This document shows positions 7,006 through 22,278 of a stretch of DNA of 26,358 nt, piece after piece. The notes under the pieces were generated by a model. The model searched no databases, had not been told where the DNA came from, and saw nothing but the letters and a program-made list of their open reading frames with translations. Positions within the stretch are counted from its first letter, which is position 1. Each line of letters starts with the position of its first letter. A program made the position numbers and the translations under genes. This stretch comes from a virus (Duplodnaviria > Caudoviricetes): positions 1-26,358 of IMG/VR virus record IMGVR_UViG_3300022777_000016. One strand, 5' to 3'.

Positions 7006-8115
7006 TCAGGCGCTCGCCTTGTCTGCGCCGGCAGCGACCGCGTCCATCGCGACCGTGTGGCTGCACCCGTGCTGGCGCTGGTACGCGCGGGCGCGCTGCG
7101 CGAGGCTCGGGTCGCTGTAGTCGACCGTCTGGTCGCCTTCGTCACCGCCAGCGGCCTCGCCGTACTCGACCGCCTTGGGCAGCTGGCCCATGAGCTCGAT
7201 GAACTGATCGCGCGGCGTACGCTCGACCGAGCCCTCGCCTTCGCTGAACTCGACGGCGGTCTCGCTATCGAGCGATGCCGCGAACTCGGCGGCGGTGTCA
7301 GCCAGCGCCGGCGGGATGCGGCCGGCGTCGACGTGCGGCTGGACGGCCTCGCGGGCCTTGCGTTGGCGCTCGGCGGCACGCAGCCGCTCGAGCTCTTGCT
7401 TTTCGGCTTCGGACATTTCGACTACCTCGGTGTCGGGATTGGGGGTGCCGTCGCCGCCGGATTGGTCACCGTCGGCGCTCGGATCGGAAAGGTCGGCCGA
7501 CTGGGCCTCGGCGTCGCCCGCGTCGTCGCTGTCGTCGGACTTGGCGAACGCCTCGATGTCCTCCGGGACGTAGGTCGGCACGATCTCGTCGGCTTTCTCG
7601 GTGCCGTGTTGCTCGATCAGCCACTCGCGCAGCCGGCGCATCGTCCCGGCGAGCACGGAACCGAGCATGCCCATGTCGGCGAGCTCGACGACGCCGTCCT
7701 CGTCCTCGGCGAAGCTGATCCCCTTGTCGGAAAGGCCCTTCACCGACGGCGGCTGGGCGCCCAGGAAGCCGACGTGGCGCAGATAGAACACCCCCGGCAC
7801 GGGGTTGTTCGGCGCGTCGGGCTTGTAGAACGACGCCGAGCGTTTCTTGAACCTGCCCGCACCGACCATTTCCTCGAAGTCGGCGTCGACCTGATCGGGC
7901 ACGGCGACCATCTCGCCGTCGTCGTTGCGCTGTAGGCCCTTCACCCAACCGAACGCCGGCGCGTTGTTCTTGGGGTGGCCCACCACGATCGGGGCCTCAC
8001 TCACCGCCGGGTCGTAGTGGTCGATCGCCTCCTGTAGTCGGTCCTCGGTGAAGTCGTGCGCCTCGCCGTTGGCGGCGGTATGCCGGCCGGATCGGAAGAT
8101 CGAGAAAGGCTGCAT
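7006..8115 (-). CDS. Prohead protease/scaffold, Mu gpI-like
   Basis: Start revised to ATG 8115 (GGAG RBS); IFRSG.H, EAPIVVGHPK.NAPAFGWV, FKKRSASFY and YLRHVGFLGAQPP.VKGL motifs; acidic linker followed by a helical scaffold region. Confidence 0.92.
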   Translation of the reverse strand: MQPFSIFRSGRHTAANGEAHDFTEDRLQEAIDHYDPAVSEAPIVVGHPKNNAPAFGWVKGLQRNDDGEMVAVPDQVDADFEEMVGAGRFKKRSASFYKPDAPNNPVPGVFYLRHVGFLGAQPPSVKGLSDKGISFAEDEDGVVELADMGMLGSVLAGTMRRLREWLIEQHGTEKADEIVPTYVPEDIEAFAKSDDSDDAGDAEAQSADLSDPSADGDQSGGDGTPNPDTEVVEMSEAEKQELERLRAAERQRKAREAVQPHVDAGRIPPALADTAAEFAASLDSETAVEFSEGEGSVERTPRDQFIELMGQLPKAVEYGEAAGGDEGDQTVDYSDPSLAQRARAYQRQHGCSHTVAMDAVAAGADKASA

Positions 8116-8215
8116 AGCGGGCTCCGGTCGTTGTCGGTCGTGCCCGCACGGGCCGCATGGGCGCCCGGTCGGGCGAATGGTGCCCATCCTGGCGGCGCGC
8201 GTAGGTTGTGGACAT

Positions 8216-8229
8216 GGGGAGATTTATCC
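8216..8229 (-). promoter_or_regulatory. Candidate Mor/C activator-binding site of the head-operon late promoter (PI-like)
   Basis: GGATAAATCTCCCC on the minus strand, 13/14 identical to 24712-24725; a CAGGAT -10-like hexamer at 8191-8186 places the motif at about -50 to -37. Confidence 0.55.
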
Positions 8230-8244
8230 CCTGCTGGTTTCCCC

Positions 8245-8312
8245 TATTGCGCTACATATAAATCTATGGTTTATTACGGGGTGTCGGGCGAAGGGCCCGG
8301 CGGATCAACAGC
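8245..8312 (+). promoter_or_regulatory. Island promoter module, copy 1 (sigma70-like promoter, palindrome, 5' hairpin)
   Basis: TTGCGC-17 bp-TTTATT with an extended TG; AAATC-N3-GGTTT palindrome at 8260-8272; GTCGGGC/GCCCGGC hairpin at 8283-8301; near-identical to 10603-10667. Confidence 0.75.
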
Positions 8313-8326
8313 AGGGGGTATCTGCA

Positions 8327-8629
8327 ATGGCACTAGGAAAAGACACGCACAAGACCGCGATCATCGCCTGCGGGCAAATCGCGCAGTCGATCATGCGCGA
8401 CGCGCGCGATGCGGGGATCTCGGGGCAGGAGAATCACTCGGCTGATTTATGGGCCTTGGCGAAGGCTTGGGCCCGGATGGAAGGCGCGCTCGAGCGCGGC
8501 GATCCCCAGGAGGCCCGCGGCATCTACGACGCGATGGGCTCGTATGGCCAGGGCTACGGCGTCGAGAAGGCCCGCAAGGACGAGCGCCAGGCCCTCGGCT
8601 ACGTGCTCGGGCTCGGGGAGGCCGCCTGA
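8327..8629 (+). CDS. Hypothetical protein (100 aa), first gene of the inverted island
   Basis: ATG 8327 after an AGGGGG RBS, directly downstream of promoter copy 1; TGATG overlap with the next gene. Confidence 0.8.
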   Translation: MALGKDTHKTAIIACGQIAQSIMRDARDAGISGQENHSADLWALAKAWARMEGALERGDPQEARGIYDAMGSYGQGYGVEKARKDERQALGYVLGLGEAA

Positions 8630-8808
8630 TGTTCTGGCACGACTTCGACGACGGCGAGCCGCCCGGGTATGGCTTGGCGAAGCGTCGCCTGCGGGCAATG
8701 CGGCGCCAGTGCATCGAACACTGGCATCCGCAAGACCCGGACTGCCCGGAGTTTGACCTGGACGACGTAGACGAGGCCGAGCGCGAGCTCGACCGCAACG
8801 TCGGCTAG
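8629..8808 (+). CDS. Small acidic hypothetical protein (59 aa, MFWHDFDD...)
   Basis: GGGGAGG RBS and TGATG coupling to the upstream gene; HPQDPDCPE motif. Confidence 0.7.
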   Translation: MFWHDFDDGEPPGYGLAKRRLRAMRRQCIEHWHPQDPDCPEFDLDDVDEAERELDRNVG

Positions 8809-8819
8809 GCGATCCGCTC

Positions 8820-8841
8820 AGGCCCCGCAGGCGCGGGGCCT
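8820..8841 (+). other. Intergenic stem-loop within the island
   Basis: AGGCCCCGC-aggc-GCGGGGCCT perfect 9-bp stem, no U-tract. Confidence 0.5.
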
Positions 8842-8886
8842 CGGCGGGCCGCTTGGTCCGGTTCAACAGCAGACAAGGGGATAGCA

Positions 8887-9393
8887 ATGGCTACACGCTC
8901 GATCGTTTCGATTCGCCTGGGACGGGCGATCACGCACTTCTACCGCCACCACGACGGGATGCCCTACCGCGCGGGCCGCGACCTGGCCGTGCTCCTGGAG
9001 CGCACCAAGATCGGCGGCGCGGGGCGTCTGATGGAGAAGCTCAGCGAGGCGCGCTATGCCGATCAGCCCGGGCGCCTGGTCTACGACCAAATCGGGTGCC
9101 AGGACGAAAACCTCGACATCGAGGACACCGACGCCGACTGGCTCTACGAGATCGCTTTCCCACCACCCGATCGCTACGGCCGGCTGTCTGATCTGTCAGT
9201 GCGGGTCCATCGCCGCGGCCAGGACGACCCGGCCTTCATGGGCGACGGCGTCGACTTCGTGATCTGGATTTCGGACTACGTACGCTGGGTGAACTTCTGG
9301 CACGAGGCCGGCGTACCCCAGCTGATCGGGGACGGGCCGGGCGGCTTCGGCCTATGTGACAAGATCACGACGTTTGAGGAGGTCCGGGGCTGA
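8887..9393 (+). CDS. Hypothetical protein with M[A/S]TR...Y.H.DG.P N-terminal motif
   Basis: 168 aa, AAGGGG RBS; MATRSIV...FYRHHDGMP..AG.DL pattern, which I recall from uncharacterised phage/plasmid proteins. Confidence 0.8.
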   Translation: MATRSIVSIRLGRAITHFYRHHDGMPYRAGRDLAVLLERTKIGGAGRLMEKLSEARYADQPGRLVYDQIGCQDENLDIEDTDADWLYEIAFPPPDRYGRLSDLSVRVHRRGQDDPAFMGDGVDFVIWISDYVRWVNFWHEAGVPQLIGDGPGGFGLCDKITTFEEVRG

Positions 9394-9650
9394 TGATTTC
9401 GCGCACTGTCGAAGTGGACACCACGGTATCGGTCGAAATTGAGCTGAGCGAGATACCGGCTGAGGATTTACAACACGAACTCGACCGCCGCGAGGTCGCC
9501 GTATCTGGCGGCGCTTACGAGCATGTTCTTCGCCGCATCGTCCGCGAGCACCACGTGCTCGGTATGCCGCTCAAGGACGTCGTTGACGATCTATTACGCG
9601 AAGGCGGGTTCCTCGCTTTGGCGTCCGAAGCGTTCGCCACGGAGGAATAG
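9393..9650 (+). CDS. Hypothetical protein (85 aa)
   Basis: GAGGAGG RBS, TGATG overlap; V.VEIELSEI..EDL..EL.RR N-terminus. Confidence 0.75.
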   Translation: MISRTVEVDTTVSVEIELSEIPAEDLQHELDRREVAVSGGAYEHVLRRIVREHHVLGMPLKDVVDDLLREGGFLALASEAFATEE

Positions 9651-9653
9651 GGT

Positions 9654-10160
9654 ATGTGGGTTTTCACGCCGACGTCCTTTGTCTCGCTGGTCGAGGACAC
9701 CAACGACATGACCCGCCTGATCGCCCGGGCTCGGTTCCCGGGCGACCTTGAGCGCATGTTCCCCGCCCAGGCGGACAAGGTCATGGTCACGCCCTGGGCC
9801 GACTACCGCTACCGCGTCTTTGTGGCCCGCCACGTCGCCGCTGAGGCGGTCGCCGCGGCCGCGCGGGCCGTGACCTACCCCAATTTCAAGGACGCCGCCA
9901 AGGCGGCCGGGGCGGATGATGTACGCCTCGGGGCACTGGGGCGCGTTTGGAGCGCACTCTACGACGGCCAGGCGCGGGCCCACGGCGATCCGTTGGCGGG
10001 TTTCGGTGGGCCTGTGTTTACCGACTACGCCGACGCGGGGGACCTGGATACCCGGGACCTGGACCTATCGACCCCCGAGGACGACAGGGCGCCGGGGTGC
10101 GCTTTCTGCGGGGACCAGCCCGACCTGTGCGATTGCGGGTATCTCGACGATGCCTCGTGA
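9654..10160 (+). CDS. Conserved phage hypothetical protein (MW.F...F.S.V / RAR / DYRYR / Y.NFK family) with C-terminal Cys cluster
   Basis: 168 aa, GGAGG RBS; motifs MWVFTPTSFVSLV, ARAR..GDL, ADYRYR, TYPNFK, VW..L; tail C-x2-C-x6-C-x-C. Confidence 0.85.
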   Translation: MWVFTPTSFVSLVEDTNDMTRLIARARFPGDLERMFPAQADKVMVTPWADYRYRVFVARHVAAEAVAAAARAVTYPNFKDAAKAAGADDVRLGALGRVWSALYDGQARAHGDPLAGFGGPVFTDYADAGDLDTRDLDLSTPEDDRAPGCAFCGDQPDLCDCGYLDDAS

Positions 10161-10245
10161 TCCAGCCGAGTACGAAGGCAGCGACAAGCGCCGGCGGGAT
10201 GAGGCCCGCCGGCTTCATGAGCAACGCGGGGGGAGTGAAAGGTGA
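10150..10245 (+). CDS. Possible 31-aa peptide (MPRDPAEY...)
   Basis: Fills the gap between two genes; overlaps the upstream stop region and has a GTGA overlap with the next gene. Confidence 0.35.
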   Translation: MPRDPAEYEGSDKRRRDEARRLHEQRGGSER

Positions 10246-10544
10246 GCGACGTAACGAATCTGTGGCGGTGGTACGGCGCCGACGATACTAGCGGCCGTCG
10301 ATATTCCGGCAGGAAGTACCAATGCTCACACGGGAAATTGCGCGAATTGTGCGAGGTCTGCGCGCGGGGCGACGAGATCGAATACCTGCGTGAGCGTTGC
10401 GAGGACCTTGTGCGCCAGCGGGAGACCTGGCGCGACAAGGCCGAGCGTGCCGCGCAGGAGGCACGCGAGCACAAGGCGATGGTGCGCGAGATTTACGCGA
10501 TCGCCGCGGGCGCCACACCCGAGCCCGGCGACCGCGGCGCGTAG
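10242..10544 (+). CDS. Hypothetical protein with C-x-H...C-x2-C putative Zn site and coiled coil
   Basis: 100 aa, GTG start with GGGGGAG RBS; QCSHGKLRELCEVC followed by a heptad-like helix. Confidence 0.7.
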   Translation: MSDVTNLWRWYGADDTSGRRYSGRKYQCSHGKLRELCEVCARGDEIEYLRERCEDLVRQRETWRDKAERAAQEAREHKAMVREIYAIAAGATPEPGDRGA

Positions 10545-10563
10545 GGCAAGCGACCGGCGGGCG

Positions 10564-10598
10564 GCCCTCGCCACCCTGGCGGGGGCGCCTGTTGGTTT
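10564..10598 (+). terminator. Putative terminator closing the first island transcription unit
   Basis: GCCCTCGCCA-ccc-TGGCGGGGGC stem followed by a T-rich run (ctgttggttt), immediately before promoter copy 2. Confidence 0.5.
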
Positions 10599-10602
10599 GG
10601 GG

Positions 10603-10667
10603 TATTGCCCTATATAGAAACCTGTGGTTTACTAGGGGTGTCGGGCAAGGCCCGGCGGATCAACAGC
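10603..10667 (+). promoter_or_regulatory. Island promoter module, copy 2
   Basis: TTGCCC-17 bp-TTTACT with an extended TG; perfect AAACC-N3-GGTTT palindrome at 10618-10630; same hairpin at 10640-10656. Confidence 0.75.
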
Positions 10668-10682
10668 CACAGGGGTCAAATC

Positions 10683-10844
10683 ATGAACAACCTTTCCACC
10701 ATTCGCCAATTCGCCGCCAGCTGCGCGGCCCAGGGCTTCACCGAGCAGGAGACGGTCGAGCGCGTCCAGATGGCGCTGTCGATCAGCGTTCTCACCGCGC
10801 AGCGCGCCCGCCGCGCCTTCCGCGACCAACAGGCCAAGGGGTAA
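10683..10844 (+). CDS. Small hypothetical protein (53 aa) co-transcribed with the AcrIF11-like gene
   Basis: Start revised to ATG 10683 (AGGGG RBS), after promoter copy 2; stop is 4 nt before the next ATG. Confidence 0.7.
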   Translation: MNNLSTIRQFAASCAAQGFTEQETVERVQMALSISVLTAQRARRAFRDQQAKG

Positions 10845-10848
10845 GGTC

Positions 10849-11313
10849 ATGGTCTATCTGGTTCACGAGGGCGCGCATCCGGGCAAGATGGACCCCCTTG
10901 GGCCGTTCGGCACCTTTTTGTTTTTTCAAGAACAAGAGCACGACCGCTCCAGCTCAACCCGTGGTACAAGCGGCACGCTATATGCCATTGAAGTTGACGA
11001 CCACCTAATATGCACACCGCGCGACATCGTGTTTGATTACAGCAACGACGCGCGCTTGCAGCCGTGGATCGACTACGTCACCGATCGATACGGCATCGAC
11101 GAAGGTGACGCTCTTGATGTTATTGGCGACAAGCCTATCCAGCACATGCTGGATCTGGAGGAACCAGGCGAGGAAGGCTGGCTACAGCAATGGGTTATTG
11201 CCGAGGCGGCTCGCTCGCTGGGCTTTGCTGGCGTCGAGGTACAAGATGAGCTCGGCTACTCGATCATGCTCGATATGGAGGGCCGTGAGGATCAATTGCA
11301 GCTGCTTACGTAA
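10849..11313 (+). CDS. acrIF11: AcrIF11-family anti-CRISPR ADP-ribosyltransferase (putative)
   Basis: 154 aa acidic protein; pattern L.H...G.FG.FLFF...LY.I...GW..Q....A..LGF.GVE.QDE.G...M.DM matches my recollection of AcrIF11 (LFHGS...GVFGGLF...GWELQ...LGYTSVEMEDEHGT); visibly more AT-rich than flanking genes. Confidence 0.8.
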   Translation: MVYLVHEGAHPGKMDPLGPFGTFLFFQEQEHDRSSSTRGTSGTLYAIEVDDHLICTPRDIVFDYSNDARLQPWIDYVTDRYGIDEGDALDVIGDKPIQHMLDLEEPGEEGWLQQWVIAEAARSLGFAGVEVQDELGYSIMLDMEGREDQLQLLT

Positions 11314-11355
11314 AGCGCGCGCGGTCGAATTGTCGCCGCGTCACTTGCCGTTTTG

Positions 11356-11379
11356 GCCCCGCTCTGGCGGGGCTTTTTT
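11356..11379 (+). terminator. Rho-independent terminator ending the island
   Basis: GCCCCGC-tctg-GCGGGGC-TTTTTT; the T-tract overlaps the stop codon of the convergent minus-strand gene. Confidence 0.85.
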
Positions 11380-11773
11380 ATGCCTGGGGGTCGGGGTTGG
11401 TCGGGCCGATCACTTGCTCGATGGCCTCACGCGCGCGCTCGCGGGATGCGTCGAGCTCCTGGCGCACGCTTTTCCATTGGCTCCACTGGCGCACCAGCTC
11501 CGGCTCGATTTGGGGGATGATCGGGCGAATCGTGTAGGTCCCCGCCGGGTCCTCGAACGTCCGCGGGCCGTCGTCGGGCGCGGGCAAGACATGGAACGGG
11601 TGGCCAGGGTTATCCGGCACGGCCCAACCGACGTCGACCATCACGATCTCGCCGGTCTCGAGCGTGTAGACCTCAGCGACTAGGCGCCCGGTCTCGGCCG
11701 TTTCCGGCGGTATGTCGAGGACGAACGGCGTGTCGCTATCGCGCGCCGCTAGGTGTTCGCGCACCACTTCCAT
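11378..11773 (-). CDS. Hypothetical protein, candidate immunity/partner of the MuF effector
   Basis: 131 aa acidic; starts 4 nt after the MuF stop; immunity role inferred from position only. Confidence 0.7.
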   Translation of the reverse strand: MEVVREHLAARDSDTPFVLDIPPETAETGRLVAEVYTLETGEIVMVDVGWAVPDNPGHPFHVLPAPDDGPRTFEDPAGTYTIRPIIPQIEPELVRQWSQWKSVRQELDASRERAREAIEQVIGPTNPDPQA

Positions 11774-11777
11774 AGGT

Positions 11778-14700
11778 TTACTTTACCACTTCCTCAAGGG
11801 CCCGACCATCGGGCCACTCATTGAAGCCGTTATCGCGGAGCACTTGCAGCACGCGCTCGCGCTCGCTCGCGCTGCTCGTCTGGATGCGGTCGAGGCCATC
11901 GAACAACGATAGCCCGCCCTTGAAGATGGTTTCGTTGGTGGGCCTCTTGGCGGCCCCTTGCCATTCCTCGGTGCCGACCTGGCGGTTTTTCTGCACGAAG
12001 TCGCCCTGCCCGTCGCGGTCGACGACACGGCCGAACTCGTCGCCCGAGTAGCTGATGCTGTCGAGGCGCTTGAGGTGGTCGGCCTTCCAATAGAAACCGG
12101 GGGACGAGGACTGGCGCTTTTTGATGCGGGTGAAGAAATACGACGCGCCGCCGGTCTCCATGTCCTGGTCAGGCGACATGCCCCCGTGCGGGATGCCGCG
12201 GCGTAGGCGGTCGGTGTTGGGCGACATCTTGCCGCCGGATTTGAGGACGTTATCGAGCGCGCTCGCGAGGTCCCCGCGCGTGTTCTCGTGATAGAGCCGA
12301 TGCTGGCGTGCGAACTGGCGAAACTCGGGCGTATCGAGGTCCGGGCGCTCGCGGCGCACCAGGCCGTGGCCGAACGCCTCGTGATCGCCCTGGGGTCGGT
12401 AGTTGGGCATCTTCGTGATGTCCTGGCCGACCTGCCCCGATAGCCACCGCTGCATTGCCGCAACCCGCTCGGCCTGGTCCTCGATGCCCTCGGTTTCTGC
12501 GATGAATTGATCGAAGCCGTCGCGCCGGTGGCGGGCAATCTGCGTGAGGTAGAGCTCCTCGCCGTCGAGGTCGGTGGCACGCGCGCCGTTGACCCCGAGC
12601 TCATCGAGCGCCTGGATTGTCTTTTCAGCCGCGCTCGTGTCGTCACCGGGGGTCTCGATGATCAGCCGGTTACGGATGGCGGTGCTGCGGTTGCTCGATG
12701 GGAAGTACAGCACGCGCCGGCCGTCGGATAAGAACGCCTCGTAATGCGTGGGGTCGCCAAGGCGCTGTACCTCGTCGGTGTCCTGGGCGAAGCCCCGGTC
12801 GAAGCGCGCCATGGTCCACGGGTGCTCGGTTCGCTTGGTCCACTCGATCGACGGCTTGTCGGCCTCGGGCTGCTCGGCCTTGGTGATGACACGCGCACCC
12901 TTTTCGAGCATGGACGCGGGCGGCGCCCAATCGGGGACCTCGCCGAGCGGGCTTTGGCCGGCTTTGTTGAGCGCGTCGACCCACGGCTCGAAGCGCTGGC
13001 GCAGCGCCTCGATGCTTTCCGGGGCGAGCTCGCCGTCGGCGACCCGTTGCTTCACCGCCGCCAGGGCGTCGTCGTAAGACTGGCGGGCGGTGGCGATGCG
13101 GTCGGCGTCCTTCTGGCGTAGCCCGCCCTTGAGCGCTTGGCTGCTCAGGCCCTTCGACGCCTCGATGATGCGGGTCTCGAGGGTGGCCTGCTCCGGTAGA
13201 TCGGGCAGCTTCGTGGCGGCACCCTCGATCTGCTCGTCCAGCTGGCGAGCTGCGGAGCGGCGCACCTTGAGGTCGGCGTTGGTGAACACGTCGCCGTCTT
13301 GGCTTCGCTGGCGCCACACGAGCACCTGCTGGTCCTCGATCTGGTCCTCATCGGTGCGGAAGGCCACCCCGTTGCTGCGCGCGTCGTCGACGAGCTTGGA
13401 CTCGGTCTCGGTCACACGGGCACCGGCCGGTTTCGGCTCGACGTCGGCACGCTCGGCGGCCTCGGGGAAGCGCTCGAGAATATCGTCACGTCGCGCCTTG
13501 AGCGTCGCCGCCAGGTTGGCCGCGGTCTGCGGATCGGCCGGGCCGTTGTTCTCGATCAGCTCGTCGATCTGCTCGTCGGTGATGCGGGCGACCTTGCGGG
13601 CACCGGCGACCATGTCCTCGCGGCTGATGTTGGCGAACGCCTGGGCCGACTGCGGGTTGATCTGCGGGTCGCGCAGGGTCTCGATCTCCTGGACCTCGCC
13701 GGTCCACTGACTCGCCGACTTCGGTGAGCCTTGGGCGCGGTAGCGTAGGGCGCCACCCGTATCGACACGCACCGCGCGCCCCGCCTTGATGAGCAGGTTG
13801 TCGTAGTCCAGGCCGGCGACGTCCCAATTGCCCAGCCAGGCATCGACGACGAAGTTGCGATGCGCACCGTCGATGCTCGACCAATCGGTGCCGGGGCCGC
13901 CGGTTTCCAGGCCCTCGATGATCTGTGAAGCGAGGCTGCGCGTACCGTCCAGGTCGATCATCTCCATGCGCGGGACCTCGACACCGGCCGCCTCGTAGAG
14001 CTTGCCCGCGAGCACTTCGTTGCGCGCGATCTCGGGTGAGTCCGGTTGCTTGATGTACCACTTCTGGCCGGTCTCGGTGTCGAGGTACGTCCCGCCCGGA
14101 TTCGAGCCTTGCTGCTCGCCCACCTTTGTGAGCGCTTCTGTGTTGATCTGTGGCGCGGGCTCGGTCTCGGGCGGGCCCTGCTCCGGGGTAGCGTCGGGGA
14201 CCGAATCTGACTCGGCGCTGGCGTCGCTGGCGGCGAGTTTGGCCTTGGCGCTGTCTGGCAGCGTGACGCCGTTGTCGTCGGCCATGTTGGCGAACGCCTG
14301 GCCCGTGCCACGCGCCTTGGCGATACCCGCGGCTTCCTCGAGGACGTCCTCGACCGCCGGGCCCTTGCCCTTGAGGACCTTGAGCCCGGGGCCCTGGGGC
14401 TCGTCGAAGTTTTCGGGGTCGATGAGCCACTTGAGCGCCTTGGCGGCGTCCGCCTCGGCGTCGGGCGTAAGCGGGAGGTCCGCGGCGAGCACGTCGGTCA
14501 CCAAGTCGTCGGCCTGGTCGCTGGCTTCCTTGGCGCTGATCGAGGCCGCGGGCGACTCGATTACGGACTCCGGCGCCTGCGCGGCCGCCTGATCGGCCTT
14601 GGCCTTGTCCAGCTTGGCGAGGAACTTGTCTTGCTCGGCCTCGTCCATGGCATCGAACGCGGCCTTTTGCGCGGGCGTGGGAATCTTGCCGGCGAGCACC

Positions 14701-16115
14701 TTTTTCTTGTAGCCCGACAGCGCACTCGCCTGTTGCTTTTTCTGTTGCTGGACGAGGTAGCGGGCGTTGACCTCATCGAGCAATTCGACCGGGCCCATGC
14801 CCTCGTCCTCACCGTTGGCTTTCATCTTGGCGAGGATTTCGGCCTTGAGCTTTTGGCCCTGCGGGTTGGCCTCGATGTCGTCGAGCGTCGCCTGGGCCTG
14901 GTCGATCTCGGCGGCCTTCGCTAGCTGGGCGTCGATCGCCTGGTCGATGTCGGCCTGGGCCTGCTCGGGCAGCGCATCGTAGGCGGCCTGGGCCTCGGGC
15001 CCTGGTTCCTTGCCCTTGAGCTTGGCTGACTTGTAGTGCGCGAGGTCGCTGTTTTGCTTTTGCTTGGCGGCCTTGGCCTGCACCGCGTCCAGCTTCTCGG
15101 ACGGGCTCATGGCCTGGCCTGTCTTGGTCTTGTTGAGCTGCTTGAGGGCAGAGGCCAGGTGGGGCTCGTTGTTGTCGGCGATCTCCTTAAGCCGCTGCGC
15201 CGCCACGGTGTCGGGGTCGAGGTTGGCTAATTCCTCGTCGGCGACCTTCTTGCCCTTGGTCCACGCCTTGTCGGCGAGCTCCTGGACGGCCGGCGCGGCT
15301 TGCTTGAGGGGCTCGGGCAGCGCGTCGATCTTCTCCTGGAGCACCGATTCGAGGTGGTCCTGGCGGGCCTTGCCGATGTGGTAGTCCCAGCCGCGGTCGA
15401 TGCCACGGGGGACCTGCAATACCTCGCCCGTGGTCGGGTTGGTCCAGGACACGGTCTCGATCGGCGGGGCCGTCGACGAAGGCTGGATGCCCATGCTTTC
15501 GAGCTCATCGCCCGATAGCTGGATCACACCACAACGGCACTGGAAGCCATTAGGGGGGTAATGGGTGTCCCACCACGGGTCGTCGACGGGCAGCGTCGTG
15601 TTGTCCCAGGCGTTGTGCATCGGCCGGGTGCGGTGGTCGTCGACCGCGTCGTACATTAGGTACGGCGCGACCTCGCGCTGCTCGCGGATTTGCTGCCACT
15701 GGCCCTGGGCGTAGGCGGCCTGGACGTTGGAGCGGTAGATGTTATTGAGGCGCGCGGCGCTACCGAGCTGGGCCTGCGTTGTGGCCCCTGTGTTGGGGTC
15801 TGTGACGTCCGCCTTCCCCCACCAGCCCTTCTGTTGCATTTTCGGCATGAGCCGCTTGCGGAAGTCGCGCGGGGTCTCTCCGTTGGCGATGGCGTCGTCT
15901 ATCGCGCTTTTGACGTCGGCGAGCAGGTCCACGTCCATCATCTTGGCGACGGTGAACGCCGCGACGTGTTCCTCGGCGACCATGTCGTCGAAACTGAACG
16001 ACGTCTTGAGGCCCTTGTCACGGAAGAACGACACGGCGGCCTCGGGCGTCTGTTGGAAGATCGACGCGAGGCCGTCACCGCTGGAGAAGTCACGGAAGTC
16101 GAGGGTGAAGCCCAC
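11778..16115 (-). CDS. MuF (Mu gpF / SPP1 gp7) head morphogenesis protein with long C-terminal extension (helical repeats, kinase-like domain, putative ADP-ribosyltransferase)
   Basis: GTG start with GGGAGG RBS after the portal gene; MuF motifs AFTVAK, RL..IYR.N...AY..G.W, YDAVDD.RTRP.H..W, PPNGF.CRC in the first ~255 aa; 1445 aa in total. Confidence 0.93.
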   Translation of the reverse strand: MGFTLDFRDFSSGDGLASIFQQTPEAAVSFFRDKGLKTSFSFDDMVAEEHVAAFTVAKMMDVDLLADVKSAIDDAIANGETPRDFRKRLMPKMQQKGWWGKADVTDPNTGATTQAQLGSAARLNNIYRSNVQAAYAQGQWQQIREQREVAPYLMYDAVDDHRTRPMHNAWDNTTLPVDDPWWDTHYPPNGFQCRCGVIQLSGDELESMGIQPSSTAPPIETVSWTNPTTGEVLQVPRGIDRGWDYHIGKARQDHLESVLQEKIDALPEPLKQAAPAVQELADKAWTKGKKVADEELANLDPDTVAAQRLKEIADNNEPHLASALKQLNKTKTGQAMSPSEKLDAVQAKAAKQKQNSDLAHYKSAKLKGKEPGPEAQAAYDALPEQAQADIDQAIDAQLAKAAEIDQAQATLDDIEANPQGQKLKAEILAKMKANGEDEGMGPVELLDEVNARYLVQQQKKQQASALSGYKKKVLAGKIPTPAQKAAFDAMDEAEQDKFLAKLDKAKADQAAAQAPESVIESPAASISAKEASDQADDLVTDVLAADLPLTPDAEADAAKALKWLIDPENFDEPQGPGLKVLKGKGPAVEDVLEEAAGIAKARGTGQAFANMADDNGVTLPDSAKAKLAASDASAESDSVPDATPEQGPPETEPAPQINTEALTKVGEQQGSNPGGTYLDTETGQKWYIKQPDSPEIARNEVLAGKLYEAAGVEVPRMEMIDLDGTRSLASQIIEGLETGGPGTDWSSIDGAHRNFVVDAWLGNWDVAGLDYDNLLIKAGRAVRVDTGGALRYRAQGSPKSASQWTGEVQEIETLRDPQINPQSAQAFANISREDMVAGARKVARITDEQIDELIENNGPADPQTAANLAATLKARRDDILERFPEAAERADVEPKPAGARVTETESKLVDDARSNGVAFRTDEDQIEDQQVLVWRQRSQDGDVFTNADLKVRRSAARQLDEQIEGAATKLPDLPEQATLETRIIEASKGLSSQALKGGLRQKDADRIATARQSYDDALAAVKQRVADGELAPESIEALRQRFEPWVDALNKAGQSPLGEVPDWAPPASMLEKGARVITKAEQPEADKPSIEWTKRTEHPWTMARFDRGFAQDTDEVQRLGDPTHYEAFLSDGRRVLYFPSSNRSTAIRNRLIIETPGDDTSAAEKTIQALDELGVNGARATDLDGEELYLTQIARHRRDGFDQFIAETEGIEDQAERVAAMQRWLSGQVGQDITKMPNYRPQGDHEAFGHGLVRRERPDLDTPEFRQFARQHRLYHENTRGDLASALDNVLKSGGKMSPNTDRLRRGIPHGGMSPDQDMETGGASYFFTRIKKRQSSSPGFYWKADHLKRLDSISYSGDEFGRVVDRDGQGDFVQKNRQVGTEEWQGAAKRPTNETIFKGGLSLFDGLDRIQTSSASERERVLQVLRDNGFNEWPDGRALEEVVK

Positions 16116-19401: not shown

Positions 19402-20043
19402 TCAACAACCGTCGTGGCCGAGCGCGATCAGCTCGGGGCGAAAGAGCGGCGGCGCGTCGATGGACGGCTCCCACGTCGCCAGGCGCGCGTCCTGGGGACG
19501 GCCGGCCTGGTAGCCGTCGTGGGCAATGCGCGAGGCGACCTCGGAGAGCAAGCGCAGCCCGAGGGGCCCGAGGCGCTCACGCCACAGGCTCTCGGCGGTG
19601 TCGTCGGGGTCGACGAACACATGCTCCTGGGCGAGCACGGGGCCCCCGTCGACCGTGTCGGTCAGACGAAAGACGGTGCCGCCGGTGACGGCCTCACGCA
19701 TGCGCAACGTCCAACGGATCGCATCACGCCCGCGGTGGCGCGGCAGCAACGAGGGGTGGTAGCCGATGGCGCCGTGGCGAGCCCGCCAGCGCGTAGGCGC
19801 ACCGATGAAGTCGTGACTGTGCGCGGCGACGATGAGGTCGAGGTCATCGGGGACGGTACGCTCGCGCAACGTACCCGCGGGGATCACGGGCACACCAGCG
19901 AGCTCGGCGGCGGTGGCGAGGCGGTCGGGCTTGTCCTCGCGCACGGGCGCGGCCGCGGCCACCACTTCCACGCCGGGCGTATGGCTTAGGATCGTGAGCG
20001 CGTTGGCGCCGAACCACTTTTGCCCCGTCACCAGTACCTTCAT
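19402..20043 (-). CDS. Formyltransferase (Fmt/PurN-like N-terminal domain), phage-encoded
   Basis: Start revised to ATG 20043 (ATGA overlap); GYHPSLLPRHRG..AI.W, GGTVF...DTVDGGPVLAQ; 213 aa, lacks the Fmt C-terminal tRNA-binding domain. Confidence 0.92.
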   Translation of the reverse strand: MKVLVTGQKWFGANALTILSHTPGVEVVAAAAPVREDKPDRLATAAELAGVPVIPAGTLRERTVPDDLDLIVAAHSHDFIGAPTRWRARHGAIGYHPSLLPRHRGRDAIRWTLRMREAVTGGTVFRLTDTVDGGPVLAQEHVFVDPDDTAESLWRERLGPLGLRLLSEVASRIAHDGYQAGRPQDARLATWEPSIDAPPLFRPELIALGHDGC

Positions 20044-21179
20044 GCCGCCTGCTCCCCGTAGTAGCGAAAGCCCTGCACGGCGCGGAAGTGGCCGCCGTAA
20101 CCGGCACCGACGCTCGACTTGCCCGTGCGCTTGATCGACGCCTTGGACTTGGCCTTGTTGCCGCCGTAGAGGTTCGCCGATAGCTGGCGCCACCGCGGGT
20201 CACGGCGCAGGGCCGCGCATAGGCCGGGGTGGCTCGTATGGAAAATCGTCGTCACCTTGCGCCCGGGCAGGCGCGCGAGCTCATCGCCTTGCATCTGCGC
20301 CTCGCACACGGCGTTGAGAAACCGCATCCCGACGCCGGCGCCTTGCCATTCAGGCTTGACCACCATGCGGCACGCGCGCGCCTCGACCTGTTTGCCCTTG
20401 TTCTTACTACCGACCGCGAGGTGGCACACGCGCTCGCCGTCGACCAAGCCAACGTAGCAATGCGCGCCCACCATCCGCGGGATCTTCAGATAGTGATGCG
20501 GCTCAAACTCCGGCCAGTAGCGCCAGTCTGTCTGCACGACATCGAGCGTGAATCGAGGCCGCTTCCATCTTTCGCGCCCCCTGTGGTACTCGCCCGTCGC
20601 CACGTCGAACATCCAATCCGGCTCCAGCCAATCGAGGATGTCGTAGTGGCACGACAGCAGGACCACGCGCGAGCCGGTGCGGCGCCACGCTTTCTGGAAC
20701 GCTGACGCGCCGATCTTGGCGATCTGGCGGTCGACCACGGAGGTAAACTCGTCGAAGATGATGGGGTCGGGCGCTTGGGTGACGATGCGCGCGAGGTCCG
20801 CGCGGAAGCGCTCACCATTGGATAGCGCGTGATAGGGGCGCAGCCACGACGGCACGTTGCCCAGGCCCACCGCCGACAGCGCACCCGTGACCGCGTCGAA
20901 GCTGTCACCACCGATCGCGTCGATGATGGGCTGGTCCTCGGGCCAATTCGCGCCGGGGTCGTAGATGTAGCCCCCACCGAATAACTGGCGGCCGATGCTC
21001 GTCTTACCGGAACCGCTCGGGCCCACGATCACACCGATCTGCCACTGGCCGTCGTCGATCGGCAGGCTCGCGTCGAGGGTGAACTCCGCGCCCGTGTCGA
21101 CGTTGAACAACGACTTGACGCGCGCGGCCCGGTAGCTCTGGAAGTCGGTCGTCGTGTTGTGGACGTGAATCTCGGTCAT
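20040..21179 (-). CDS. ABC-type ATPase fused to a GNAT-fold acyltransferase
   Basis: Walker A GPSGSGKT, signature LSNGE, Walker B FDEFTSVVDR, switch His (SCH); C-terminal acetyl-CoA motif RMVVKPEWQGAGVG; no transmembrane partner nearby. Confidence 0.9.
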   Translation of the reverse strand: MTEIHVHNTTTDFQSYRAARVKSLFNVDTGAEFTLDASLPIDDGQWQIGVIVGPSGSGKTSIGRQLFGGGYIYDPGANWPEDQPIIDAIGGDSFDAVTGALSAVGLGNVPSWLRPYHALSNGERFRADLARIVTQAPDPIIFDEFTSVVDRQIAKIGASAFQKAWRRTGSRVVLLSCHYDILDWLEPDWMFDVATGEYHRGRERWKRPRFTLDVVQTDWRYWPEFEPHHYLKIPRMVGAHCYVGLVDGERVCHLAVGSKNKGKQVEARACRMVVKPEWQGAGVGMRFLNAVCEAQMQGDELARLPGRKVTTIFHTSHPGLCAALRRDPRWRQLSANLYGGNKAKSKASIKRTGKSSVGAGYGGHFRAVQGFRYYGEQAA

Positions 21180-21751
21180 GTATTGACCACCCGTACCTTG
21201 TAGCCCTCGCCCGTGAGCTTGGCGTACAGCGATTCCTGCTCGGTCTCATCGCCGCACTCGATGAACACGCCGTGGGTGCCCTCGGTCTCGTCGTCGTCGT
21301 CGCCCTCGCCGTCGTCGTCACCGTCGCCGGTGTCCTCGCTCTTGGGTGGTTTCTCCAGGTCGTGCAAGCGCGCGGCGATCTCGGCGGCGCTCTCGTCGGC
21401 GATGGCCTCGAGCGTGGCGCGTAGCTGCTCGTCGTCGGTGCTCGCTAGGTTGGTCAGCGGGTCCAACGACAGCAGCGCCTTGCGTTCCTCGGCTTCACTG
21501 AGGCGCACGTAGGTCACGGGGACCTCGCTCTCGTCCGCGGCGAGTGCAATCCCGACGCGCAGGTGGCCGTCGACTAGGTGGCCGGTGGTGACGTTGACGA
21601 TGACCGTCTGCACCCAGCCGACATGGGCGATGGTGTCGCGCACCGCCTGGCGCTGGACCGAGGGGTGGATGCGCCAATTGTTCGGGTTGGCGAGCAGCTG
21701 GTCCGGGGCGACCGTACTGGTCTCGACGATGCGGTCGCTCCAGTCGCTCAT
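21176..21751 (-). CDS. ParB/Srx N-terminal-domain protein (paralog 2)
   Basis: NPNNWRIHP...GW...VIVN..TGHLVDGHLR; acidic linker; C-terminal IEC.DE.EQ..L...L...G motif. Confidence 0.85.
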   Translation of the reverse strand: MSDWSDRIVETSTVAPDQLLANPNNWRIHPSVQRQAVRDTIAHVGWVQTVIVNVTTGHLVDGHLRVGIALAADESEVPVTYVRLSEAEERKALLSLDPLTNLASTDDEQLRATLEAIADESAAEIAARLHDLEKPPKSEDTGDGDDDGEGDDDDETEGTHGVFIECGDETEQESLYAKLTGEGYKVRVVNT

Positions 21752-22278
21752 ACGGTGATCGCCTTGGCCTTGAGCCCGAGCGCCTGCATGTCGCCGAGGG
21801 CCTGTTCCTGCTCGGCCTTGCTGTCACACTCGATGATGAGCCCGGCCTGGGCCTGGTATTGGTCCTCGGGCGGGGTCTCGTTCGGGTCGGCCGGGGTGAA
21901 CAGGCGCGCGAGCGTGGGGTCGTCGAACGCCGTGTCCTGGCGTAGCTGCTCGATGATGTCGGAGTCGAAGTCGGCCAGCGCCGCCGACGGGTCGAGCGTG
22001 GCGAGGATGAAGTGTTCCTCGCCCTCATCGACGTCGACGTAGAGCACCGGCACGTGCTCGCCGGCCTCACGCGCGAGCTCGGCGCGCAGGTGGCCGTCGA
22101 GGATGCGCCCGGTCTGCTCATTGACCACGACCTGGCGAATCCAGCCGATCTCGCCGAGGGCGCCGTTCATGGCCTCACGCTGCGTACTCGGGTGCACACG
22201 GAAATTGGCCGGGTGCGCAAGCAGCTGGTCAGCCGCTTCGACGCCGCTTTCGATGATGCGGTTGTTCCATTCAGTCAT
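21748..22278 (-). CDS. ParB/Srx N-terminal-domain protein (paralog 1)
   Basis: Start revised to ATG 22278; HPANFRVHP...GW...VVVN..TGRILDGHLR; same C-terminal IECDS..EQ motif; ATGA overlap with the next gene. Confidence 0.85.
   Translation of the reverse strand: MTEWNNRIIESGVEAADQLLAHPANFRVHPSTQREAMNGALGEIGWIRQVVVNEQTGRILDGHLRAELAREAGEHVPVLYVDVDEGEEHFILATLDPSAALADFDSDIIEQLRQDTAFDDPTLARLFTPADPNETPPEDQYQAQAGLIIECDSKAEQEQALGDMQALGLKAKAITV

Follow-up and report, generated by a model that had tools for sequence, protein, structure and literature searches.

The window analysed here is an entire viral contig of 26,358 nt (IMG/VR record IMGVR_UViG_3300022777_000016), and its subject is a block of nine short plus-strand open reading frames (ORFs; o1 to o9, positions 8327-11313) inverted within the minus-strand late operon of a tailed phage. 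We read this block as an inverted hotspot for variable cassettes which combines an AcrIF11-family enzyme (o9), a partner of a MuF-fused kinase (o5) and swappable counter-defence or host-takeover cargo, and we assign this reading a probability of roughly 0.55.

Results

The minus-strand late operon runs from the lysis, terminase, portal and MuF genes to the protease, capsid and tail genes. The nine ORFs are inserted between the B3-type head maturation protease (7006-8115, minus strand), which is divergent from the first leader of the block (P1), and a 131-aa gene plus MuF (11378-16115, minus strand). A plus-strand block of short ORFs at this MuF-to-protease position, including an acrIF11 gene, had been described in the initial annotation and was recovered in our analysis. 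A codon-usage gene caller trained on the core genes called eight of the nine ORFs; the ninth (o6, 31 aa) shares 71% identity over 24 aa with an ORF at the equivalent position in L257, the closest relative of the window. Contigs of DNA run X1 are identical to the window over 7389-9468, 9448-11218 and 11228-12139, a match which is not an independent assembly check because X1 may be the source sample.

To place the block among related phages, 80 loci were retrieved by capsid, 39 of which carry MuF and then protease on one strand. An inverted block of more than 3 kb was found in 2 of these 39, and both pair a homolog of o5 with a long MuF that contains the kinase. In 20 picked related loci with an inverted o5 block, some clipped by contig ends and some close kin, 2-13 mostly small genes occupy 0.6-5.5 kb; the protease-retrieved loci L001-L007 were left out as too distant. 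L257 is an Ectothiorhodospiraceae bin whose head and MuF proteins are 60-83% identical to those of the window. Its block retains o1 (33% identity, as first gene), o3 (40%), o5 (54%), o6 and both leaders; other genes replace o2, o7 and the o8-acrIF11 pair, and o4 is absent. Variable content in related phages is therefore evident both across the 20 loci and in the gene swaps of L257, as the initial annotation had anticipated. Its view of the site as an acr locus with neighbours gives way to that of a lineage-wide accessory hotspot that received acrIF11, because the closest relative has the block without this gene. Among the cargo of these and similar blocks in relatives are ArdC, Dam, Dcm, DUF4942, DUF932 and KTSC genes. 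Overall, support for defence-related cargo is moderate, not strong, and a counter-defence role of o1-o4 and o6-o8 is assigned by association only.

The o9 protein (10849-11313, plus strand, 154 aa) scores 65.5 bits against the NCBIfam AcrIF11 model NF052490 (cut-off 50; residues 14-140) and matches AcrIF11_Pae2 (PDB 8DWQ) with an E value of 3.2e-11 and about 30% identity by alignment. The catalytic D/E pair is kept, with D133/E134 of o9 aligning to D146/E147 of AcrIF11_Pae2, residues that respond to NAD (nicotinamide adenine dinucleotide) binding according to the cited part of the source (10.1101/2024.08.26.609590). Family membership suggests an ADP-ribosyltransferase (ART) fold; the single-sequence structure model of o9 reached a predicted local distance difference test (pLDDT) score of 39.9. 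Homolog searches returned only o9 itself or nothing, and the family search was also silent in control genomes. The G+C content at third codon positions (GC3) of o9 is 0.65, below the 0.86-0.89 of three core genes, which fits a recent gain. Judging by its family, o9 is predicted to ADP-ribosylate and disable the type I-F CRISPR complex. The host is probably a halophilic gammaproteobacterium, as indicated by L257 and by the acidic proteins. Taken alone, o9 would be just a new, divergent AcrIF11 family member.

The MuF protein (11778-16115, minus strand, 1445 aa) combines MuF with a kinase domain of the HipA/CtkA-like type (about 13446-14150, MuF residues about 656-890) and a middle domain (12441-13415) that is unnamed, and it ends in a C-terminal domain (about 11784-12389) with an ART-like motif order, as judged by eye. 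Across 27 sequences the kinase residues K34, E45, D110, N118 and D130 are invariant, corresponding to the Lys, the alphaC Glu, the catalytic Asp/Asn and the metal-binding Asp. The domain matches HipA_C weakly (E 0.009), its PDB matches are CtkA and HipA alone (E 0.6-0.9), and it is present in about 600 viral contig stretches. In L086 and L088, MuF carries a different ART class at its C-terminus, so these C-termini are exchangeable. Where the MuF C-terminal domain is present, a homolog of the 131-aa gene (11378-11773, minus strand) stands next to it in 43 of 68 loci (duplicates included), and no homolog was seen apart from this domain. The gene thus tracks this domain and likely encodes an immunity protein. 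With a MuF domain, an exchangeable C-terminal enzyme and a downstream immunity-like gene, the window MuF has the layout of a polymorphic effector.

Linkage to this kinase sets o5 apart from the other block genes. The o5 protein (9654-10160, plus strand, 168 aa) belongs to an unnamed family tied to the HipA-like kinase domain. Among the best 80 of 593 viral kinase loci, ranked by likeness to the window, o5 was found in 54, in 39 of the 46 with at least 6 kb downstream, and in 14 of 18 clusters at 60% identity. In case of GTDB genomes, 29 of 80 kinase loci have o5 (19 of 53 with at least 6 kb downstream), and its frequency rises to 12 of 13 where the loci hold MuF parts. Kinase-free capsid loci have o5 in 1 of 78 cases, and that contig has a kinase at its other end. 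Further, a free-standing kinase gene directly precedes o5 in three unrelated contigs (L155:2660-3703, L130:6202-7450 and L173:1043-2956), with abutting stop and start codons in one of them. The gene linked to the kinase is o5, of no known family, and not a HipB-type helix-turn-helix (HTH) antitoxin. Based on these counts, the ORF at 9654, previously listed as an anonymous anti-CRISPR (Acr) candidate, is better explained as partner of the MuF-fused kinase, likely as its antidote or cofactor. A limited literature search, including the consulted portions of PMC5512222, PMC9503650 and PMC8008677, returned no mention of a kinase partner like o5.

With regard to the stand-alone pairs, one belongs to an AT-rich phage and has T4-like genes around it, and one has its kinase fused to a NUDIX-like domain (by eye). 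The large phages L126, L132, L135 and L161 show another arrangement, in which a giant kinase-bearing protein is followed by a 165-aa gene, a NUDIX-like gene (by eye), o5 and then a terminase-like gene.

The block has two leaders that are near-copies of each other (82% identity over 83 nt, E 1e-17). P1 (8247-8311, plus strand) consists of the -35-like hexamer TTGCGC (8247-8252) and the inverted repeat TAAATC-N3-GGTTTA (8259-8273) over the likely -10, followed in the 5' part of the RNA by a 7-bp hairpin (8283-8301) and TCAACAG (8305-8311). In P2 (10605-10666, plus strand) the corresponding elements are TTGCCC (10605-10610), an inverted repeat (10617-10631), a hairpin (10640-10656) and TCAACAG (10660-10666). 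All four leader copies, two in the window and two in L257, share TATTG, the 15-bp inverted repeat, the 7-bp hairpin and TCAACAG. The repeat ends in GGTTTA over the likely -10 and overlaps the promoter in 4/4 copies, and the hairpin has 7/7 pairs in each copy, with one compensatory pair (4 sequences from 2 genomes). As near-duplicates conserved in L257, P1 and P2 are regarded as promoter-like. An internal hairpin with a partial leader copy precedes o3 (8820-8886, plus strand; TCAACAG at 8863-8869 and a ribosome site) and is kept in L257; the hairpin itself, at about 8820-8841, is of G+C pairs and without a U tract. A single clear intrinsic terminator, called at 11355-11374 within an element that extends to 11380 (plus strand), closes the block.

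Outside the block this leader type is rare. In the 2.9 Mb L257 genome the repeat pattern occurs at its two leaders only; a host regulon motif was considered and rejected for this genome, the pattern being nowhere outside the leaders. A leader-motif search of viral and metagenome contigs returned one unrelated match or none, and with a leader weight matrix, convincing copies were confined to the window and L257.

No aca (anti-CRISPR-associated) or other HTH gene had been seen in the block before, and our searches agree: no block ORF matched an HTH or ribbon-helix-helix family of Pfam or NCBIfam, and an HTH profile from relatives had no match in the window, o1-o4, o6 and o7 being judged by sequence only. 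The o8 protein, considered as a hidden HTH/Aca on the basis of a motif seen by eye, was ruled out, its model showing two helices (pLDDT 93.8) and no fold match. This role may fall to a repressor whose gene lies elsewhere, or to one of the shared ORFs that escapes recognition. The former is likely because, as in Aca-controlled operons, each leader has an operator-like inverted repeat together with a 5' hairpin.

Six related blocks (L104, L107, L108, L109, L115 and L180) encode a small HTH that is weakly Aca3-like (E 0.003, behind generic matches). Five of these six carry a different promoter inverted repeat, which is found in 1 of 337 other loci, a count that is partly circular because the pattern was read from these loci. 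Together, this HTH family and its matching promoter repeat look like a new Aca-like regulator with no known acr genes alongside. An Aca-like HTH gene also closes the inverted block of a Thioalkalivibrio prophage (L286:11002-11142), which holds six or seven orphan small genes, and an inverted mini-block with an unrelated head type has a NikA-like ribbon-helix-helix gene (L098:3560-3724) immediately upstream of o5.

The phage type was assessed from the window and from two relatives covered over their full length, namely a prophage of Thioalkalivibrio and a contig of 38 kb from a Halomonas bin. The window capsid shares 50% identity with the capsid of Pseudomonas phage B3, the window TerL is of the Terminase_6 type, and a DnaC/IstB-like gene lies at the right end. 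B3, JBD18, JBD67 and POA1180 have no block at the MuF-protease junction. Genes for a tyrosine integrase, CI and RecT/ERF-YqaJ are present in both relatives, for which 13 selected proteins were scanned and others judged from gene lists; these lists showed no transposase. The phage is therefore probably not of the D3112/Mu transposable type that had been assumed, and is likely a lambdoid temperate phage with a B3-type head. Because of the integrase, CI and recombinase genes of the two relatives, we restrict the term Mu-like to the head module.

The remaining block genes are all on the plus strand. The first, o1 (8327-8629, 100 aa), belongs to no family. It is followed by the acidic o2 (8629-8808, 59 aa; no homolog found) and by o3 (8887-9393, 168 aa), which falls among unnamed viral clusters of the atlas and has an FYxHxDG motif. 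A distant o3 homolog opens the Thioalkalivibrio prophage block, and two further distant ones sit together with an ArdC-like gene in an operon (Pfam check: 1/2), opposite a terminase small subunit gene. Next are the acidic o4 (9393-9650, 85 aa; GC3 0.69), the Arg-rich o6 directly after o5 (10150-10245), o7 (10242-10544, 100 aa; Cys/His motif and coiled coil, not in L257) and o8 (10683-10844, 53 aa; predicted two-helix hairpin, no homolog found). Both o4 and o8 are recent gains, and o8 shares P2 with acrIF11. One may speculate that o6 binds RNA such as the leader hairpin, and, equally speculatively, an N/nut-type reading of o6 and hairpin could be entertained. No meaningful match for o1-o8 was found in PADLOC, Pfam or PHROGs, and searching PDB sequences with alignments of o5 and of o3 gave no match either.

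Elsewhere in the window, between the lysis and terminase genes, a formyltransferase, an ABC-ATPase/GNAT fusion and two ParB-like genes (19402-22278) possibly form a DNA-modification or packaging-linked module.

Discussion

In transposable Pseudomonas phages of the D3112/JBD30 type, small acr-aca1 genes sit immediately upstream of the head protease gene and have a promoter of their own. The window block likewise consists of small genes directly upstream of this gene. In contrast to those loci, it is inverted, has no aca1, does not adjoin gpG and belongs to a phage with a B3-type head whose relatives integrate by tyrosine recombinase. The o9 protein resembles characterized AcrIF11 proteins (NF052490; PDB 8DWQ, AcrIF11_Pae2; 6KYF) in its profile score above cut-off, its D/E pair, its size and its phage-borne nature, but is divergent, has no adjoining aca gene and probably serves in a halophilic gammaproteobacterium.

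In case of regulation, the closest likeness is to Aca control as described in the cited passages of Feussner et al. 2026 (PMC13551039), where paired DNA repeats and RNA hairpins stand ahead of several neighbouring operons. Promoter inverted repeats, 5' RNA hairpins and an extra motif between genes are common to those anti-defence loci and the window; an HTH or ribbon-helix-helix aca gene in one operon is described there, whereas none was found in the window or L257 block. The MuF protein compares well with MuF-fused effectors and polyvalent proteins (Iyer et al. 2017, PMC5512222; 2022, PMC9503650), which, in the portions cited, have MuF-fused enzyme domains, presumed to be packaged and injected, and exchangeable ART C-termini. 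The kinase that these portions describe, from phages of Verrucomicrobia and Bacteroidetes, is of a truncated Ser/Thr type, unlike the HipA/CtkA-like kinase of the window with its likely dedicated small partner, of which they make no mention. A HipA-like kinase gene within the head module is also known from 'Gratiaviridae' (PMC8008677, in part); there it is accompanied by an AAA ATPase and a glycosyltransferase, and we liken the two by description only.

Several observations weigh against our reading of the block as a cassette hotspot with counter-defence cargo. Of the promoters and terminators attributed to the block by the initial annotation, one intrinsic terminator and the two promoter-like leaders hold up; a sigma-70 scan returned 0 promoter sites, and the likely -10 is without the usual A at -11. 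No repressor gene for the block was identified. The lambdoid assignment rests on two relatives because the window has no immunity region. With regard to o5, 50 of 80 o5 loci have no kinase in the fetched flanks, although the other 30 do, compared with 2 of 80 capsid loci. The frequency of o5 at kinase loci is favoured by a kinase profile that was itself derived from o5-linked examples, and the locus sets overlap. In GTDB, o5 is present in just 7 of 40 kinase loci without MuF parts. Further, the CRISPR gene Csy3 turned up in 0 of 13 genomes from the L257 family and in 4 of 55 from the Thioalkalivibrio family, and the target of o9 is kept as a prediction because Csy3 is scarce in these two candidate host families. 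The contents of the relatives' blocks also count here: several hold ordinary lambdoid early-type genes (Ref, DUF1367, DUF3268, DUF6948, dUTPase), and no NCBIfam Acr family was found in their 46 + 61 proteins, the 46 including some from co-oriented blocks. The naming of the other ORFs as candidates by association thus keeps its basis, an acrIF11 gene in the block, at a support that is modest since no Acr family is present in these 107 proteins.

The same contents, together with methylases in relatives' blocks and the lack of acrIF11 in L257, would be expected if the site were a general early accessory region of recombination, methylation and nucleotide helpers, with acrIF11 as a solitary, recently acquired passenger and with no link to defence for o1-o4 and o6-o8. 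We consider this somewhat unlikely, given the Aca-like HTH and operator in relatives, the ArdC genes in a comparable block and beside o3 homologs, and leaders whose operator and hairpin resemble those of anti-defence operons in the cited passages of PMC13551039. It is unlikely, to a slightly greater degree, that o9 is an enzyme of AcrIF11 fold with a target other than Csy1, be it another defence protein or a host factor. Its distant match, the rarity of type I-F systems in candidate host families and the lack of any close homolog among the search results would fit such a target; yet o9 passes the equivalog cut-off, two tested Pseudomonas AcrIF11 homologs are themselves about 27% alike, and the rarity is read from candidate families and not from the host itself.

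A prophage-expressed moron appears more improbable still. Here o5 would shield the lysogen from kinases of sibling virions, AcrIF11 would prevent self-targeting, an activity for which the cited part of 10.1101/2024.08.26.609590 gives precedent, and the other genes would serve superinfection exclusion. The relatives are indeed integrated prophages, the block runs against the late operon with leaders and a terminator of its own, and a weak comparison by eye in two relatives found no operator common to block promoters and the CI-Cro region that would point to CI control. Shut-off is nevertheless suggested by the conserved operator-like repeat over the -10, and the co-orientation of o5 with the late operon in 7 of 17 MuF-kinase-to-protease loci (inverted in the other 10) fits a need in the lytic cycle.

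Under the preferred reading of an inverted cassette hotspot, MuF would enter the cell together with the DNA and bring in its kinase and ART-like domains, as MuF biology in the cited passages suggests. Host RNA polymerase would read P1 and P2 right after DNA entry, with transcription stopping at the terminator at 11355. The AcrIF11-family o9 would act against type I-F CRISPR, and o5 may restrain or direct the MuF kinase. A repressor from outside the block could later bind the inverted repeat over the -10. New cassettes may enter via recombination at the repeated leader, with o8 and acrIF11 replacing other P2 genes. A bolder and, in our view, doubtful extension would be that hundreds of phages pack a HipA-like kinase in the head as a pre-formed anti-defence weapon, with o5 as its dedicated, undescribed antidote or targeting subunit. 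Here, o5 would have seeded an inverted cassette array which grows by recombination at operator-hairpin leaders and is shut off by a new non-HTH repressor, and several orphan genes would inhibit defence systems that have no known inhibitor.

Viewed as a cassette hotspot, the block yields an order of candidates for defence screening, namely o8 and o4, then o3, o2, o7 and o1, with o5 to be set against the kinase. The virion-borne kinase domain becomes a testable two-part system, and o5 provides a marker gene for an accessory hotspot that aca-guided mining misses in this sub-lineage.

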